A DNA stretch of 46,171 nucleotides from an uncultured Candidatus Saccharibacteria bacterium. GTDB taxonomy: Bacteria; Patescibacteriota; Minisyncoccia; UBA6257; WO2-44-18. The DNA is taken from positions 1 to 46,171 of the forward strand of contig CAZJFE010000002.1 in the NCBI GenBank assembly GCA_964545345.1, written 5' to 3'. The notes under the pieces were generated by a model. That model saw nothing but the letters and a program-made list of their open reading frames with translations, made no database searches and was not told where the DNA came from. Numbering within the stretch: position 1 is the first letter of the stretch; every line of letters starts with the position of its first letter. This document shows, one piece after another, positions 5,797 to 45,764 of the stretch. Made by a program: the position numbers and the translations under genes.

Positions 5797-6362
5797 AAAC
5801 GGCGAAGGCCGTTTTTTTAGATCGCGATGGCACCCTCATTAAGCAGGTGGAGTTAATGCACAAAATAGCGGACTTGGAAGTTCTGCCGGGAGTCCCAGAA
5901 GCAGTTGCCCAATTAAACCAGTTGGGTTTCTTGACGGTCATTGTTACCAACCAACCGGTAGTGGCTCGCGGCGTTGCGACGCCGGGGGATATTGAAAAAG
6001 TAAATACCGAATTACTTAAACGTCTCGCGGTTGGCGGTGGGAAAGTTGATGCGGTTTATTTTTGCCCACACCACCCCGAGGCAACCCTTGAGCAATATCG
6101 TGTTGTTTGCGATTGCCGAAAGCCGGAGCCGGGAATGATTTTGAATGGGATCAAGGAATTCAATATTGATCCAAGGCAGAGCTTTATGATTGGGGATGCG
6201 ATTATTGATATAGTGGCTGGCCAAAAAGCGGGTTTAAAAACTATTTTGGTGAAAAGCGGCCCTGGGCATTCCGGCTTGGACAAAAAATATCCCGATGTTC
6301 ATCCGGATTGGGAGGCGGCCGATCTTAGCGAAGCGGTTGAAATTATTAGTCGTCAGTCGTAA
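5760..6362 (+). CDS. gmhB: D,D-heptose 1,7-bisphosphate phosphatase (HAD-IIIA)
   Basis: VFLDRDGTLI motif I, the CPHHP...CDCRKPEPGM zinc/HAD-IIIA signature and a GDAIIDI motif. It overlaps the gmhA 3' end by 37 nt. Confidence 0.8.
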   Translation: MGNSAKTNQPRLETAKAVFLDRDGTLIKQVELMHKIADLEVLPGVPEAVAQLNQLGFLTVIVTNQPVVARGVATPGDIEKVNTELLKRLAVGGGKVDAVYFCPHHPEATLEQYRVVCDCRKPEPGMILNGIKEFNIDPRQSFMIGDAIIDIVAGQKAGLKTILVKSGPGHSGLDKKYPDVHPDWEAADLSEAVEIISRQS

Positions 6363-9605: not shown

Positions 9606-9953
9606 ATGAAAAGCATCGGAATAGACATTGTTGAAGTAAAAAGATTTCGAAATGTCCCATACAAAAAGGGCAGCGTTTTTTATTCCAAAATCTTCAGCGA
9701 TGCCGAAATCAAATATTGTTTATCTAAAGATGACCCCTACCCGCACTTCGCCGCGCGCTTCGCCGCGAAAGAAGCGGTTTTGAAGTGTTTGAAGAGCACA
9801 ATCTATAAAATAAAGGAGGTGGAGATTCTTAACGATAAGAAGGGCGTTCCGTTTGTCCGACTTCACGGTCGTAAGTCGTTAGTCGTTAGTCGTTTCTTGA
9901 TTTCGCTATCGCACACTAAAGATCAGGCCGCCGCCATCGCATTCTTACAATGA
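9606..9953 (+). CDS. acpS: Holo-[acyl-carrier-protein] synthase (4'-phosphopantetheinyl transferase)
   Basis: IGIDIVEVKRF, FAARFAAKEAVLKC and ISLSHT motifs. Length 115 aa. Confidence 0.85.
   Translation: MKSIGIDIVEVKRFRNVPYKKGSVFYSKIFSDAEIKYCLSKDDPYPHFAARFAAKEAVLKCLKSTIYKIKEVEILNDKKGVPFVRLHGRKSLVVSRFLISLSHTKDQAAAIAFLQ
9867..9894 (+). repeat. Tandem heptanucleotide repeat inside acpS (GGTCGTA AGTCGTT AGTCGTT AGTCGTT)
   Basis: Read directly from the sequence. It encodes RKSLVVSRF. The stop triplets created by the repeat (9872, 9880, 9887) all fall in the two non-coding frames. Confidence 0.8.
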
Positions 9954-13896: not shown

Positions 13897-14621
13897 TGGC
13901 AAAAATTTTGGGAGTTATCACCGCGCGGGGTGGCTCTAAGGGAATCCCGGGTAAAAACATTAAGCCGCTGTTAGGTAAGCCGTTAATCGCTTACACGATT
14001 GAAGCCGCCAAAGCATCAAGCGTGGTTGATCGTTTGATTCTTTCTACCGACGATCTGGAAATTGCTGAAGTGGCGAAGCAATACGGTTGTGAGGTCCCAT
14101 TTATTCGTCCAGCTGACATCGCCGACGATAAAGCCGCGCATTTACCGGTATTGCAACACGCGATTAAAGCTTTGAAAGAAAAGGACGGTTATGAGCCGGA
14201 CTATGTTTTGTTGCTCCAACCGACCTCTCCGGCCCGGCAATCCTTTCATATCAAGGAAGCCGTGGAGTTGATAGAGAAAAGCGGCGCGGATTCCGTTTTG
14301 AGCGTGGCGGAAATCCCGGAGAATTTTCATTACAAGAAAGCGATGGCCGTTAATGAAGATGGAGTTTTGCGGTTAGTTAAGGATTCCGGGCCAATTTATA
14401 ACCGAGTGGCCCGTCGCCAAGATTTGGAAAAAAACTACTGGAGCGTTGGTTCTATTTATCTTTTCAAAACTAGTTTGTTGTTTGATCAGGTAAAGCCGAA
14501 TTTTTATGGCGAAAAAACTATGCCCTACGTGATAGACGCGAAGTATGTCGTGGATATTAATGTTCCCGCGGATTGGGAAGTGGCCGAAAAAGTGATCAAA
14601 CGACTAACGACTAACGACTAA
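13896..14621 (+). CDS. neuA: Acylneuraminate (nonulosonate) cytidylyltransferase
   Basis: ITARGGSKGIPGKNIKPLLGKPLIAYTIEAA is the CMP-NulO synthetase N-terminal signature. The start overlaps the neuC stop. Confidence 0.85.
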   Translation: MAKILGVITARGGSKGIPGKNIKPLLGKPLIAYTIEAAKASSVVDRLILSTDDLEIAEVAKQYGCEVPFIRPADIADDKAAHLPVLQHAIKALKEKDGYEPDYVLLLQPTSPARQSFHIKEAVELIEKSGADSVLSVAEIPENFHYKKAMAVNEDGVLRLVKDSGPIYNRVARRQDLEKNYWSVGSIYLFKTSLLFDQVKPNFYGEKTMPYVIDAKYVVDINVPADWEVAEKVIKRLTTND

Positions 14622-14626
14622 CGACT
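14599..14626 (+). repeat. Perfect tandem heptanucleotide repeat (AACGACT)x4, containing the neuA stop and abutting the next ATG
   Basis: Four exact units. It is the reverse complement of the AGTCGTT repeat found at the other loci. TAA recurs every 7 nt, so stops occur in all three frames. The ATG at 14627 follows immediately. Confidence 0.9.
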
Positions 14627-15562
14627 ATGAAAATTTTAATTACCGAGCCGCAGGATTATTCCAAGAAAGCTGTTGAGATGTATAAATCTCACGGCGATGT
14701 GGTTTTAGGTGGTGAGCCGGACGCGGAGACGGGGGTGATAGCGATTCGGTTAAAACACAAGATTGATAAGAGCTGGATGGATAAAATGCCGAATTTAAAA
14801 ATTATTGCTTCACCAACTACCGGATTGAATCACATAGATATCGCCGAGGCGGAGAAGCGGGGCATTAAATTGATCACTTTACGTGGACATACCGACTTTT
14901 TGGATAAGATCACTTCTACCGCCGAAGAAACTTTGGGATTGATACTGGCTCTAGTTCGCAAGATTCCGCAAGCGCACGAGCATGTTAAGGGCGGAGGATG
15001 GAATCGCGACGCTTTCCGAGGTTATCAGTTGGCCGGTCAAACACTCGGCATATTAGGATTGGGTCGGCTTGGTCGGATGGTGGCGCGTTATGCAAAATCA
15101 ATGGACATGAAAGTAGTCGCCGCTGATCCCGGTATTACCGGAGAGGAAATGAGCAAGCAAGGAGTAACAAAAGTTAGCCACGAAGAATTATTCAAAAATT
15201 CCGACATTCTTTCTTTGCACGTGATGTTGACCGATAATACTAAGAATTTAGTGAAAGAGGGAGATTTGAAGTTAATGAAGCCGTCGGCTTTGTTAGTGAA
15301 TACGGCTCGGGCGGAAATTATGGAAAAGGGAGCTTTAGAAAAAGCATTGAGAGAAAAATGGATCGCCGGGGCGGCGGTAGATGTGATGTGGGACGAAGAG
15401 GGTAGTGGCGCGCATTTGGCCAAGAGTGAACTCTGGGATATGGCAAAAAGCGGTCAGCATAATTTGATTATCGTTCCGCATATCGGGGGCGCCACTTATG
15501 ACGCCATGCAAATCACCGAAGAATTTATCGCCGATTTAGTGAAAAAAGAATTAACAAAGTAA
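14627..15562 (+). CDS. D-isomer-specific 2-hydroxyacid dehydrogenase, NAD-binding
   Basis: GILGLGRLGRMVARY dinucleotide motif and the catalytic-His context VPHIGGAT. Length 311 aa. Confidence 0.8.
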   Translation: MKILITEPQDYSKKAVEMYKSHGDVVLGGEPDAETGVIAIRLKHKIDKSWMDKMPNLKIIASPTTGLNHIDIAEAEKRGIKLITLRGHTDFLDKITSTAEETLGLILALVRKIPQAHEHVKGGGWNRDAFRGYQLAGQTLGILGLGRLGRMVARYAKSMDMKVVAADPGITGEEMSKQGVTKVSHEELFKNSDILSLHVMLTDNTKNLVKEGDLKLMKPSALLVNTARAEIMEKGALEKALREKWIAGAAVDVMWDEEGSGAHLAKSELWDMAKSGQHNLIIVPHIGGATYDAMQITEEFIADLVKKELTK

Positions 15563-26691: not shown

Positions 26692-26756
26692 AAAATCCCC
26701 CCTTGTCCCTTACATAAGGTTTATGTGAGGGATAGACTACGGGGGGATTTTGTTTT
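26692..26756 (+). terminator. Compound terminator: an 11-bp outer stem (AAAATCCCCCC/GGGGGGATTTT) enclosing a 12-bp REP-like hairpin
   Basis: Outer arms at 26692-26702 and 26741-26751. Inner hairpin TCCCTTACATAA-GGT-TTATGTGAGGGA at 26706-26732. A T-rich tail follows. Confidence 0.7.
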
Positions 26757-26761
26757 ACGAT
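26756..26761 (+). promoter_or_regulatory. -10-like box TACGAT placed 7 nt before the upstream ATG at 26769
   Basis: The spacing is the same as at the other leaderless-layout genes in the window. Confidence 0.3.
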
Positions 26762-26768
26762 TCAGGAA

Positions 26769-26900
26769 ATGAATCCCGTTAGAAACAGCCAAACCTAAAT
26801 AACCATGACAATTAATATGCAAAAATCAGTCGTGAATAAAAAAGTAGTATGTGTGCCACGGGTACGCCCGGCAGGCGCACCCTGCTTCTAACGGGATGAA
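26769..26900 (+). promoter_or_regulatory. Start-codon-masking long-range inverted repeat, copy 2 (12+3 bp stem, about 93-nt loop, mini-ORF MNPVRNSQT*)
   Basis: ATCCCGTTAGAA (26773-26784) pairs with TTCTAACGGGAT (26886-26897), extended by CAG/CTG after one mismatch. The 3' arm ends in the ATG at 26896. ATGAA lies on both flanks. Confidence 0.7.
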
Positions 26901-27597
26901 AGGAGTTATCTTAGCGGGTGGCTTAGGGACTCGGCTTCACCCGGTGACCTTGGAAATGCCCAAGCCATTATTGACCGTTAAGCGGCGGCCGATTTTGAAT
27001 CACTTATTAGATTTGTTTAAGAAACACGGCATTGATCAGCCGACGATTTTGATTAACAAAGGCCACCTTGAAGATTACCAGTGGTGGCAGAGGCGTTATG
27101 AGAAAGAAGTGCCGGCGAATTTGGAATTAGTTGTGGAGCCGGAACCGCTGGGCACTTTCGGTGGATTAAAGATTGTTAAAGAGCGTCTGACGGAACCGTT
27201 TATTTTGTCTAACGGCGATGAGCTAAAGGATTTTGATTTAGGGGCGCTGGTCAAGGCGCACAGAGAAAATCCTACCAAACCGGTGGCGACGATCGCCCTT
27301 GTTGAAGTAGAAAACCCATCCGATTATGGAGTACCGGTTTTAGATGGAGATAAAATAAAAGAATTTTTAGAAAAACCGCAAAATCCGCCGTCCAATTTTA
27401 TTTCTTCCGGCCTCTACGTGGTGGAACCGGAGATTTTTCAATACGCGGATTGGTCAAAAAACTTTCTAATGATTGAAAGGGATATTTTCCCGAAAGTAGC
27501 CGCTGCCGGCAAATTGGCCGGTTACAAAGTTAAAAACGGCAAATGGTATGACTGCGGGACGTTTAGCCGCTGGGAAAAAGCTATTAAAGAGTGGTAG
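26896..27597 (+). CDS. Sugar-1-phosphate nucleotidyltransferase (mannose/glucose-1-phosphate)
   Basis: MKGVILAGGLGTRLHPVTLEMPKPLL signature begins at ATG 26896. The track's start at 26851 adds 15 non-conserved residues. Confidence 0.85.
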   Translation: MKGVILAGGLGTRLHPVTLEMPKPLLTVKRRPILNHLLDLFKKHGIDQPTILINKGHLEDYQWWQRRYEKEVPANLELVVEPEPLGTFGGLKIVKERLTEPFILSNGDELKDFDLGALVKAHRENPTKPVATIALVEVENPSDYGVPVLDGDKIKEFLEKPQNPPSNFISSGLYVVEPEIFQYADWSKNFLMIERDIFPKVAAAGKLAGYKVKNGKWYDCGTFSRWEKAIKEW

Positions 27598-32589: not shown

Positions 32590-32738
32590 TTGCGGGCTGT
32601 AAGCAAAGCTTTCGGCCCATCACTCGGAGAAAGCGCACAAGTAAGCTTGTCCGATTCTCCTTCGTTCGGGCTGTAAGCAGAGCTTGCAGCCCATCATTCG
32701 GAAGAAGCGTACAAGCGAGCTAGTACGATCTTCCTTCA
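32590..32738 (+). repeat. Two tandem 74-75-nt units, each folding into two hairpins, sharing the 5' sequence TTCGGGCTGTA with the tRNA that follows
   Basis: Unit A spans 32590-32664 and unit B 32665-32738, about 80 percent identical. The stem of hairpin 2 changes GGAGAA/TTCTCC to GGAAGA/TCTTCC, which is compensatory. Confidence 0.7.
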
Positions 32739-32740
32739 TT

Positions 32741-32919
32741 CGGGCTGTAGTATATCGGCAGTACACACGCCCCGCCCCCACACCAAAATTTCGGAGAGTA
32801 GTATATCGGCAGTACACACGCTTCGGGTGCGTGAAGGCCGGGTTCGATTCCCGGCTCTCCGACGGTGTGGTGTGGGGGTGAAGGTGCGTGAGGGCTGGGT
32901 TCGATTCCCAGCAGCCCGA
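32741..32919 (+). tRNA. Interrupted tRNA-Pro-like gene (outer): intact acceptor, D, anticodon-stem and T arms, but 115 nt in place of the 7-nt anticodon loop
   Basis: The 5' part is CGGGCTG TA GTAT ATCGGCA GTAC A CACGC (32741-32770). The 3' part is GCGTG AGGG CTGGG TTCGATT CCCAG CAGCCCG A (32886-32919). C1-G72 and A73 match the Pro signature. No identifiable NGG loop. Confidence 0.6.
32792..32862 (+). tRNA. tRNA-Pro (anticodon CGG), 71 nt, no encoded CCA
   Basis: Manual cloverleaf: CGGAGAG/CTCTCCG acceptor, D arm GTAT-ATCGGCA-GTAC, anticodon arm CACGC-TTCGGGT-GCGTG, 4-nt variable loop, T arm CCGGG-TTCGATT-CCCGG, and A73. Confidence 0.85.
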
Positions 32920-37050: not shown

Positions 37051-37057
37051 TAAGTTA

Positions 37058-37181
37058 ATGAATCCCACACATAACAAAGAGTGCCGTGGGATCGTAATAG
37101 TCGTCGGGCGTAATTTATAAACATAAAAAATAATTAAAGACAGAGAGCGAATAAATAACTCTTTGTTATGTGTGGGATGAA
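37058..37181 (+). promoter_or_regulatory. Start-codon-masking long-range inverted repeat, copy 3 (21-bp perfect stem, 75-nt loop, mini-ORF of 20 codons)
   Basis: ATCCCACACATAACAAAGAGT (37062-37082) is the exact reverse complement of 37158-37178. The 3' arm ends in the ATG at 37177. ATGAAT lies on both flanks. The uORF (MNPTHNKECRGIVIVVGRNL*) spans 37058-37120. Confidence 0.75.
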
Positions 37182-37587
37182 TAAAAAAATGCTTCTTTGG
37201 TTAGTGGTTGCCGCTGTTTTGTTGGTCGGAGGGTATTTAGTTTTTGGTCCGGGTAAATCCGTAGTTCCCCTACCAGGTCTGGGAACATCACCGACTCCAA
37301 GCACTCAGCCGTCGCCCGCTCCGACTACCGGAGGATTAGTTCAGGTAGCGATTCGCGGATTCTCGTTTGTAGGAGCAAGTACTAAGGTGGTGCCTGGCAC
37401 TACTGTCGTTTGGAAGAATTTTGATGATGTGAATCACAGCGTTGTTGGAGCTAGTTTCCAGAGTAAAATTTTGGGTAAGGGGGGATCTTATTCCTATAAG
37501 TTTACTAAAGAAGGCACCTATCCCTATTACGACGGTCTCCACCCTGAAACCAAAGGTGAGATCATCGTTCGGAACAGTAATTTCTAG
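37177..37587 (+). CDS. Membrane-anchored cupredoxin-fold protein (plastocyanin/amicyanin-like) lacking the canonical Cys ligand
   Basis: N-terminal TM segment, a Pro/Thr linker, then VVWKNFDDVNHSV...GTYPYYDGLHPETKGEIIV. In the position of Y-C-x-x-H-x-x-M the sequence reads Y-D-G-L-H-P-E-T. Confidence 0.65.
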   Translation: MNKKMLLWLVVAAVLLVGGYLVFGPGKSVVPLPGLGTSPTPSTQPSPAPTTGGLVQVAIRGFSFVGASTKVVPGTTVVWKNFDDVNHSVVGASFQSKILGKGGSYSYKFTKEGTYPYYDGLHPETKGEIIVRNSNF

Positions 37588-37608: not shown

Positions 37609-37644
37609 AAAAAATAATTGCTAAACTCTTAGCAATTATTTTTT
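37609..37644. terminator. Bidirectional A/T-flanked terminator hairpin
   Basis: A 16-bp stem AAAAAATAATTGCTAA / TTAGCAATTATTTTTT with loop ACTC. It abuts the ATG at 37645. Confidence 0.8.
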
Positions 37645-45122: not shown

Positions 45123-45764
45123 ATGCAAGTAATTCCCGGTATAGAAGGAGCGGATGCCGAATCCGTCAAAGAGCAATATGAGAAAGTTAAAGATTTGAAT
45201 CCTGATGGTTGGGTTCATTTAGATATTACCGACGGAAAGTTTACACCGGCGGTGAATTGGGGCTCGCCAGAAGGGCTTAAGTCCTTAGTCCCTAGTCGTA
45301 AGTCGTTAGTCGAGCTACACCTGATGGTGGAGGATGTGGAAAAATCTATAGATAGTTGGTTGAAGACAGGACTGATCAAGCGGGTGATTGTTCACCTAGA
45401 GGCGATGTCTGATCCGGTTTTTGTGATTCAAAAATGTAAGGAATATGAAGTTGAGCCGATGTTAGCAATTAAGCCGGAGACGGAGGTTGAGCGTTTATTC
45501 GCGCACAAAGATGATTTTCGCGCTTTTCAGATCTTGGCGGTTAATCCGGGTTGGTCGGGTCAGAAGTTTAATGAGGATTCTTTGGCAAAAATAGAGTGGA
45601 TTAAGGCCAAAATACCGAATGCTATAATAGAAATAGACGGGGGCGTCAATCCGGAGGTAGCTAGGAAGTGTTACCAGGCCGGAGCAAACGTCTTAATCTC
45701 AACTTCTTATATCCAAAAGAGCCAGAGTCCTCAAGATGCATACAAGGAACTATTCAATGATTGA
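45123..45764 (+). CDS. rpe: Ribulose-phosphate 3-epimerase
   Basis: HLDITDGKFTP, ELHLMV, AVNPGWSGQKF and EIDGGVN motifs. Length 213 aa. Confidence 0.85.
   Translation: MQVIPGIEGADAESVKEQYEKVKDLNPDGWVHLDITDGKFTPAVNWGSPEGLKSLVPSRKSLVELHLMVEDVEKSIDSWLKTGLIKRVIVHLEAMSDPVFVIQKCKEYEVEPMLAIKPETEVERLFAHKDDFRAFQILAVNPGWSGQKFNEDSLAKIEWIKAKIPNAIIEIDGGVNPEVARKCYQAGANVLISTSYIQKSQSPQDAYKELFND
45280..45314 (+). repeat. Tandem heptanucleotide repeat inside rpe (AGTCCTT AGTCCCT AGTCGTA AGTCGTT AGTCGAG)
   Basis: Read directly from the sequence. It encodes KSLVPSRKSLVE. The repeat-generated stop triplets (45286, 45293, 45299, 45307) all avoid the coding frame. Confidence 0.8.

Follow-up and report, generated by a model that had tools for sequence, protein, structure and literature searches.

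What is the long inverted repeat that encloses the start of a sugar-1-phosphate nucleotidyltransferase gene in an uncultured Candidatus Saccharibacteria bacterium, and how might a gene so enclosed still be translated? The repeat lies at 26769–26900 of a stretch of DNA of 46,171 nucleotides (nt) (assembly GCA_964545345.1, contig CAZJFE010000002.1), which was analysed at its full length and is called the window here. A first-pass annotation had described the repeat as the second copy of a dedicated leader that masks the start codon of the gene. The analysis replaces that regulatory reading with a family of MITEs (miniature inverted-repeat transposable elements) that dwells on start codons and is widespread in Patescibacteria. 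We hold with high confidence that copy 2 is a member of this MITE-like mobile family, with the ATG of the gene rebuilt at its end. The joint reading, in which the mobile element also relays ribosomes to the gene behind it, is favoured with moderate confidence.

The features from which the leader had been deduced are present. The 12-mer ATCCCGTTAGAA at 26773–26784 returns as its reverse complement at 26886–26897, and the window contains four occurrences of it at up to one mismatch, where 0.31 would be expected and none of 100 shuffles gives as many. As the first-pass annotation noted, CAG/CTG extends the helix past an A-C mismatch, and the repeat finder gives 16 nt of pairing at 94% complementarity around a 93-nt loop, with a 5' arm ATCCCGTTAGAAACAG at 26773–26788 (+) and a 3' arm CTGCTTCTAACGGGAT at 26882–26897 (+) that holds a TAA (26889–26891) plus the A and T of the gene ATG. 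For the 137-nt RNA of copy 2, the predicted fold contains this long-range helix and has an energy of -43.9 kcal/mol (z = -5.1), a stability that no sequence among 200 shuffles attains. This stable helix encloses the gene AUG together with the 5' end of the transcript, which is probably leaderless. The ATG at 26896 opens a gene of 233 amino acids (aa) at 26896–27597 (+), with an NTP_transferase Pfam match from residue 2 and a length shared by most of its closest homologues; it had been mis-called as 248 aa from a GTG at 26851, inside the element. Upstream of it, the ATG at 26769 opens a small upstream open reading frame (uORF1, MNPVRNSQT*; 26769–26798, +) that runs through the 5' arm to a TAA at 26796–26798. 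Six nt past this stop begins uORF2 (MTINMQKSVVNKKVVCVPRVRPAGAPCF; 26805–26891, +), whose 28 codons run up to the 3'-arm TAA, which precedes the gene ATG by 4 nt. The loop hairpin CGGG-TACG-CCCG is real and belongs to a longer, subterminal GC-rich hairpin in the fold (GTGTGCC-A-CGGG-TACG-CCCG-GCA-GGCGCAC; 26851–26880, +) that adjoins the gene-proximal arm. The -10-like hexamer TACGAT is found at 26756–26761 (+), 7 nt upstream of the first ATG, and copy 1 indeed has the same 12-mer arms (1302–1313 and 1401–1412) around an unrelated loop. The anatomy described in the first-pass annotation therefore stands.

What was overlooked is that the pentamer ATGAA forms a direct repeat at both ends of copy 2 (26769–26773 and 26896–26900). 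Its TGAA is the target-site duplication, with a left copy at 26770–26773 (+) and a right copy at 26897–26900 (+), and between the two lies the inserted element, TCCCGTTAGAA...TTCTAACGGGA, which measures 123 bp from terminal inverted repeat (TIR) to terminal inverted repeat (26774–26896, +). On the left, TGAA and A26769 make up the original host start ATGAA, now the opening of uORF1. On the right, the last base of the element, A26896, joins the TG of the host to form the working start codon. The ATG survives the insertion because the element ends in A, so that the right junction again gives A plus TG.

Relatives with uninterrupted gene starts bear this out. Segment 26774–26900 is absent from L123 (L numbers designate loci in other genomes), a syntenic orthologue at 94% aa identity that reads TACCAT-N7-ATGAAAGGAG. 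The empty site there, ...caggcaATGAAAGGAG, has one ATGAA only; L123 continues as ...attttgttttaccattcaggcaATGAAAGGAG where the window has ATGAA[TCCC...GGGATGAA]AGGAG, and the two differ by the 123-bp element and a second TGAA at exactly the point where the gene starts. The locus in L123 (...ggggggattttgttttaccattcaggcaATGAAAGGAGTT) consists of a terminator, a -10-like box, 7 nt and the gene, with TACCAT at the place held by TACGAT in the window. Judged from this orthologue, TAC(G/C)AT-N7-ATG is the native leaderless-type layout of the nucleotidyltransferase gene. The element is missing from the orthologous loci L124 and L126 as well, and nucleotidyltransferase orthologues at 77% and 76% identity are also empty and have the same coding start. 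The site of copy 1 is empty in L130 and L131 (91%) and in L128 and L129 (93%), and that of a third, related element of the window in L135 and L136 (96%) and in L132–L134 (81%). At all three sites, then, orthologues keep the coding start without the leader, which argues against a leader dedicated to these genes.

There are also signs of movement. In L042, two near-identical copies (a few base differences in ~113 nt) stand ~6 kb apart before different genes, and in the tandem arrays of L010 and L062, an ATGAA that one element had rebuilt became the insertion site of a second. The nucleotidyltransferase start of a 70% relative, L138, carries a different family member, that is, an independent hit in another lineage. 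At the site that is occupied in the window, a 91%-identical orthologue, L137 (~270–285), reads aggcaACGAAATGAAAGG, a 5-nt tandem of the target pentamer with the first ATG mutated, which may be an excision footprint. Tandem ATGNAATGNA shows no enrichment over control spacings, and ACGAAATGAAAGG in L137 is a single anecdote. Other sites are shared between genomes. L037 and L115 have an element before ftsW that is ~88% identical, with perfectly conserved arms, in flanking coding DNA of ~78% identity; L026 and L081 both have a 108-nt element at the start of clpP, with identical arms and unrelated interiors. Going by sequence comparison, these patterns could reflect old insertions under host-level selection or repeated independent insertion.

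The extent of the family was assessed by searching one genome per GTDB species for the exact two 12-mers, 75–105 nt apart. The arm pair was found in at least 120 stretches from many Patescibacteria lineages, often several per metagenome-assembled genome (MAG) and at least four times in MAG CAZLXA01. Among the matches listed, it is almost exclusive to Patescibacteria-labelled contigs, with labels that include Saccharibacteria, Paceibacteria, Nomura-, Kaiser-, Zambryski-, Jorgensen-, Moran-, Doudna-, Levyi- and Kerfeldbacteria, as well as others. The statistics that follow refer to 128 exact-arm copies among these matches, or to subsets of 119, 103, 101 or 95 as stated. Elements are 85–133 bp long, with open reading frames (ORFs) of at most 41 codons and peptides that are not conserved. 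The target-site duplication measures 4 bp in 95 of the 128 copies, 5 bp in nine and 3 bp in seven, and reads TGAA (68 copies), TGGA (16), TGTA (5), TGCA(A) (7), TAAA (3) or TTTA (1). Of 101 copies, 87 have the same ATGNA at either end, with an N that varies with the host gene. The duplication is not a by-product of the helix, since the variable base is the same, not complementary, on the two sides.

Past the 12 invariant pairs, the stem continues with two covarying pairs, 13 and 14, and then a conserved C·T mismatch. Pair 13 is AU in 45 copies, GC in 36 and CG in four, whereas pair 14 is UA in 58, CG in 25 and AU in six. The covariation score of 0.161 compares with 0.079 in shuffles (none of 500 reaches it) and with at most 0.087 for slid partners, which we take as signs of selection on the stem structure. 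The resulting helices are 14–21 bp long, with z = -3 to -7. The interiors are mostly unrelated, forming 83 similarity clusters in 103 copies, and have a few short traits in common, namely AGTCG, an extended stem or subterminal hairpin and, at ~35 nt from the 5' end, a run of GGGA or CGGG. They are also polar. GGGA occurs in the interior of 38 copies versus TCCC in five; a motif YTRY beside the arm, usually adjoining the hairpin, is gene-proximal in 64 copies, distal in eight and at both ends in eight. The element is oriented ~10:1 in the sense direction of the gene, and its sense strand is A-rich.

Short identical inverted repeats around unrelated segments before glycan genes are also the layout of the invertible promoters of Bacteroides. 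A recombinase acting at the shared 12-mer arms might accordingly flip the 90–100 bp between them and turn surface-glycan genes on and off (phase variation), and both orientations of the asymmetric interior do exist, at different loci. However, flanking direct repeats and precise empty sites denote transposition rather than inversion, the orientation is biased across loci, and three independent assemblies of the window locus, which is found in identical form in GCA_007376325.1 and in an ENA assembly, share one orientation. Neither the filled junction of this strain nor an empty or footprint allele had a match in a metagenome collection, a sign that the collection does not contain the organism. 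No recombinase or transposase domain was detected among 30 window proteins scanned, including those of the genes flanking all three copies, and the targets of the family include housekeeping genes. An invertible switch is thus given practically no credence.

By contrast, the family has the properties by which MITEs are recognized: a size below ~400 bp without a transposase gene, TIRs, a host-derived target duplication, multiple copies, and filled versus empty sites. The element is regarded as a MITE because of its empty sites, duplication, TIRs, recent copying and tandem insertion. It resembles bacterial MITEs such as Correia, Nezha of cyanobacteria, RUP and MITEAba12 in being ~100–150 bp long with TIRs, a duplication and a foldback structure but no transposase. 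For such MITEs, filled and empty sites among close relatives and co-transcription with neighbouring genes have been described (PMC3184786). In contrast to them, the present element has as its target a TGNA inside a start codon, not TA or an intergenic site, and rebuilds the ATG with its last base; its 12-bp ends are identical across a superphylum although the interiors are unrelated, and its orientation is strongly biased. To our knowledge, no parent insertion sequence (IS) exists for it in the literature, and a literature search found no description of the 12-mer in this context and none of MITEs or leaderless genes in Patescibacteria.

A possible kinship is suggested by piggyBac, which has a 4-bp duplication (TTAA in most, which fits T-N-N-A) and ends that begin with CCC, and of which IS1380 is the prokaryotic relative (PMC10813416). 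The element differs in that its ends are TCCC and its duplication is TGNA, TAAA or TTTA, mostly of 4 bp and sometimes of 3 or 5 bp. No transposase of any family was identified for the element, so this similarity is treated as a lead only. Precise excision, for which piggyBac is known, would fit the clean empty sites. Two other classes of repeat were considered. Integron attC sites are hairpins of 57–141 nt that are defined by structure, with 7-nt inverted cores, variable centres and a conserved asymmetry, and the element core GTTAGAA fits GTTRRRY; however, the cores are ordered GTTAGAA...TTCTAAC in the element and RYYYAAC...GTTRRRY in attC, and the element stands at gene starts, not after cassettes. 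REPIN/RAYT sequences, which are inverted REP doublets with a conserved GTAG-type motif, differ from it by having no target duplication. The duplication with its variable N points to staggered cuts and not to site-specific recombination, and its host origin is the ground on which the attC, REPIN and, on present evidence, invertible-switch readings are rejected.

Related sequences extend beyond the exact-arm copies. Like the third element of the window, sister families with arms TCCCGATAGTGTTA, TCCCGTACGAAATTTTA and TCCCGTTAGAGACA share the TCCC/GGGA ends and the ATGNA junctions (L116 3070–3189 and 7853–7973, L120 5720–5797, L017 3196–3313, L029 3764–3881 and L082 6018–6140). Solo 3' arms, (T/C)TCTAACGGGAT, which lack a 5' partner, immediately precede a gene ATG in L050 (2040–2051), where the gene encodes an NAD-dependent epimerase, and in L091 (6255–6266); by their sequence, they look like decayed elements that kept the gene-proximal arm. 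A search of ~0.95 Mb of loci for an autonomous partner (arms 0.3–4 kb apart, or unpaired arms) yielded just neighbouring small copies, variants of 270–300 bp and solo remnants. One candidate, in L118, was rejected as it holds three ordinary ORFs. The element had no matches in viral contigs.

Could the repeat nevertheless be what the first-pass annotation proposed, an RNA leader conserved for regulation in cis (for instance a sensor of temperature or of a ligand) which covers the start codon and co-regulates nucleotide-sugar genes? Its helix, uORF and -10 box are all real, and two of the three window copies, 1 and 2, precede sugar-nucleotide enzymes. Yet close relatives have identical coding starts without it, and the loops of the copies are unrelated to each other. 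In other genomes, the 81 complete ORFs downstream of elements match 119 Pfam families, and these genes include ssb (four times), ftsW, clpP, rplR (L18), topA, ligA, UvrD, aminoacyl-tRNA synthetases, triosephosphate isomerase and SecDF. The window itself is a glycan-biosynthesis region, with two NTP transferases, two epimerases, a GHMP kinase, SIS, HAD, Wzy_C, a flippase and Bac_transf, so two copies beside sugar genes are the base rate. Rfam 15 gave no match at gathering thresholds for the whole window, nor at E-value thresholds for the element and eight loci. None of the marks of a riboswitch or leader (conservation upstream of orthologues, a conserved core, a match to a curated family) was found. 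Co-regulation of glycan precursor supply is therefore left without support, and a regulatory leader of this kind is considered highly improbable.

If elements inserted at random, start codons are not expected to be their usual place. In 119 of the 128 copies (93%), an ORF of 60 codons or more starts with the last A of the element and the TG of the host. The window has 31 wholly intergenic ATGNA sites, 99 intergenic TGNA sites and 16 genes starting with ATGNA, and 14–34% of copies would be expected on start codons if insertion were random at those sequences with only intragenic hits lost. Degenerate copies (up to two mismatches per arm) are few and again mostly at starts (10 of 17), and among them an ascertainment check found no sign of missed decayed intergenic copies. 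One explanation is that insertion is actively aimed at ORF boundaries, at starts and sometimes at stops, for example at DNA engaged in transcription or translation initiation. The excess over expectation and the degenerate copies are in its favour, as is the finding that, of six non-start copies examined, at least three coincide precisely with the TAA that closes the upstream gene and have TAAA or TAA as their duplication (L086 6265–6364, in a Smithellaceae bin; L112 1266–1369, in a Firestonebacteria bin; and L038 5438–5556). The first two of these bins are labelled as phyla other than Patescibacteria. The independent hit on the same gene start in L138 and the possible excision footprint in L137 would also agree with it. 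On the other hand, a TAnnnT box at leaderless spacing stands before just 35–45% of targets, and others are operon-internal starts, such as that of ftsW after the stop of the preceding gene; the transcription start is thus not the common denominator. Truly neutral intergenic DNA is scarce in these genomes (8%), so a large part of the bias may be due to survivorship. Multiple hits on one gene family are close to chance: ssb is a target four times, and 12 coincident gene-family pairs compare with ~8 by a rough chance estimate, which led us to reject hot-spot target genes. The start-codon bias may thus reflect either active targeting or survivorship in genomes with almost no neutral DNA.

The aiming view has a variant that concerns translation, in which ribosomes would cross the base of the hairpin by shunting or bypassing between the duplicated AUGNA. 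Bypass elements (T4 gene 60, and the byps of Magnusiomyces mitochondria) have codons for take-off and landing that match on either side of a hairpin, and the take-off and landing pentamers of the element are identical. It is from these matching pentamers that the shunting variant would be read. Active aiming, with or without shunting, is judged to be very unlikely.

How, then, do the disrupted genes stay expressed? Expression must survive the insertion, because the targets include ssb, ftsW, clpP, rplR, topA, ligA and aminoacyl-tRNA synthetases. We propose, tentatively and with a little less belief than doubt, that downstream expression goes by a relay of ribosomes through the element. The host promoter would still drive transcription, with the RNA starting at or near the left-hand AUG. 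The two arms would pair and hide the gene AUG. Ribosomes that start at the 5' AUG, or at an internal AUG with a Shine-Dalgarno (SD)-like run GGGA(G) upstream of it in some copies, would traverse the element and melt the helix, to terminate either at the 3'-arm TAA, which precedes the gene AUG by 4 nt, or at a TGA that overlaps this AUG as ATGA. The gene AUG would then be exposed, and re-initiation would be possible. In such a scheme, the element would be a portable translational-coupling leader and not a gene-specific regulator, and it would probably dampen expression by making the gene depend on upstream translation.

The evidence for the relay comes from the reading frames. The frame that ends at the arm TAA (UAA-CGGG-AUG) has a median open length of 22 codons; among 119 copies, it is open over 25 codons or more in 55 and over the whole element in 39. 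In the gene frame, by contrast, the open length upstream has a median of 10 codons and reaches 25 codons in five of 119, and for the frame closed by the TGA of ATGA the values lie in between. The uORF from the host ATG stays open across the entire interior in 31 of 95 copies, versus 7–14 in five control frames and a mean of 10 (maximum 20) in shuffles; when independent clusters were counted separately, it extended to the 3' arm in 25 of 83. Read-through in frame with the gene was seen in 0 of 25 and 0 of 28 cases in two counts. An ORF in the TAA frame starts from an internal ATG in 42 copies (median 21 codons), some with a GGGAG- or AGGA-like run 6–12 nt upstream. Copies 1 and 2 of the window each hold a chain of small ORFs that ends at the 3'-arm TAA. 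In copy 1, MKSR* (1297–1311) is followed by an SD AGGAGG (1332–1337), N4 and an ATG at 1342 whose frame stops at a TGA (1360–1362), and an overlapping ATGA start at 1359 leads to the TAA at 1404–1406, before the gene ATG at 1411. A conserved uORF peptide was ruled out, the peptides sharing just the residues encoded by the arms (MNPVR..., and ...CF* or ...YF*).

Together, the orientation bias, stem covariation and open TAA frame suggest that the element is shaped to preserve translation of its target gene. According to the first-pass annotation, homologous genes with identical coding starts and no comparable leader would favour a recent insertion with no function. Such homologues do exist, and insertion is what they indicate; the absence of function is not supported, given the same three features.

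Several observations weigh against the joint reading of mobile element and relay. As regards the mode of movement, no transposase or autonomous partner with these ends was found in ~0.95 Mb of loci, and the conservation of the arms is partly imposed by the exact-match search. The case for the relay is made from reading-frame statistics; an early stop is found in about two thirds of host-ATG uORFs, and in 52 of 119 elements no ORF that begins with an ATG ends at the arm TAA. The openness of the frames could also stem in part from a few founder copies, though 83 interior clusters were counted. In addition, the start-codon rate of 93% is far above what tolerance of insertions alone would give, and the model does not explain it. 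The early-stopping uORFs and the 52 elements without a TAA-ending ORF imply that the relay is not the sole route of expression.

An alternative or parallel route is a serious matter, because about half of the copies have no obvious complete relay. The insertion might be purely selfish, and the gene might be expressed from a gene-proximal promoter borne by the element, or from a new 5' end at or near its AUG that RNase III makes by cutting the helix (a secondary leaderless mRNA). The long and stable helices described above suit this view, and transcribed Correia elements of Neisseria are RNase III substrates. The early stops in most host-ATG uORFs, the roughly nine copies in which the left ATG is mutated and the right one intact, so that the left ATG is not strictly needed, and the persistence of solo gene-proximal arms in L050 and L091 all agree with a selfish insertion. 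As to a promoter, however, none with two hexamers was found in copy 1 or copy 2. At the right distance from the gene ATG stands TAYTTC or TGCTTC, a hexamer without the final T that sigma-70 -10 boxes normally need, and TAnnnT before internal ATGs is barely enriched (4 of 33 versus 1.4 expected). A selfish insertion would also leave the open TAA frame and the avoided in-frame read-through unexplained. We consider this set of routes rather unlikely as the explanation.

Compared with known expression devices, the proposed relay is closest to translational coupling and erm-attenuator-type leaders, in which a small ORF melts a helix over the start and the stop lies 4 nt before the start or overlaps it. 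It would depart from them in residing on a mobile element before unrelated genes, with no conserved leader peptide or known signal. Rickettsia palindromic elements (RPEs) are small palindromic mobile insertions that are tolerated in expressed genes, where they are translated in frame. In-frame read-through is avoided in the present element. A functional resemblance is found in the Neisseria REP2 and Borrelia IR repeats, which supply start signals to many genes (PMC3184786). REP2 has its own promoter, ribosome-binding site and ATG and no TIRs or target duplication, whereas the element supplies just the A of the ATG, and no canonical promoter was found inside copies 1 and 2. A bolder reading, which we regard as unlikely, joins the two themes: the family would be a start-codon-homing (or ORF-boundary-homing) element with ends shaped into a portable translation device, working by relay re-initiation or by hopping between the AUGNA. 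What may make the ends such a device is that the ATG is rebuilt, that two frames are closed by a stop immediately ahead of it, and that the helix places the 5'-terminal AUG beside the gene AUG. If true, translation would pass through a mobile leader for a sizeable share of the genes in these reduced genomes (3 of 49 here).

Patescibacteria have reduced genomes with many leaderless-type or SD-less gene starts. For a mobile element in such a compact genome, sitting on a start codon, rebuilding that codon and being tolerated before genes of housekeeping families is a new lifestyle. The filled and empty alleles are a natural experiment in how leaderless-type or SD-less starts cope with a structured leader of 120 nt. 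The invariant 12-mer pair can also serve as a marker for Patescibacteria. The element poses an annotation problem as well, in that gene callers place starts inside it. Besides the mis-called nucleotidyltransferase, protein P0021 (L138 601–1356) carries a spurious N-terminal ...DPSNGMK translated from the 3' arm, and wrong N-termini are likely in Patescibacteria protein catalogues wherever the element occurs.

Within the window, the mobile elements amount to three copies in 46 kb, before three of 49 genes. Copy 1 measures 109 bp from TIR to TIR (1303–1411, +) and lies before an epimerase gene with its ATG at 1411, with a 5-bp duplication TGAAA at 1298–1302 and 1412–1416. The third element (37063–37177, +; inverted repeat 37055–37185) belongs to a sister family, its arms TCCCACACATAACAAAGAGT... 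differing from those of copies 1 and 2. Its TGAA duplication lies at 37059–37062 and 37178–37181, and its ends have the same form as in copies 1 and 2, ATGAA|TCCC...GGGA|TGAA. It occupies the leaderless-type start of a cupredoxin-like gene (ATG 37177). Between that gene and an LTD-domain gene, at 37609–37644, there is a perfect 16-nt palindrome, AAAAAATAATTGCTAA / TTAGCAATTATTTTTT, with a 4-nt loop; A and T runs border it on both sides, as in a bidirectional terminator.

Other repeats were noted in the window. Tandem heptamers (AGTCGTN)n are present at 6348–6360 (+), 9867–9893 (+), 14600–14626 (-) and 45294–45313 (+), and AGTCGTNAGTCGT has nine matches in the window against 0.06 expected. The arrays at 9867–9893 and 14600–14626 are inverted relative to each other and 4.7 kb apart, and the latter ends 1 nt before an ATG at 14627. 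AGTCG also occurs inside the MITE interiors, with a bias to the sense strand (22 copies versus five). Finally, a 74-nt unit is repeated 2.1 times at 32593–32749, between the gene for the CCA-adding enzyme and tRNA-Pro(CGG) at 32792–32863, and each unit carries a GC-rich hairpin and a TACGAT box.

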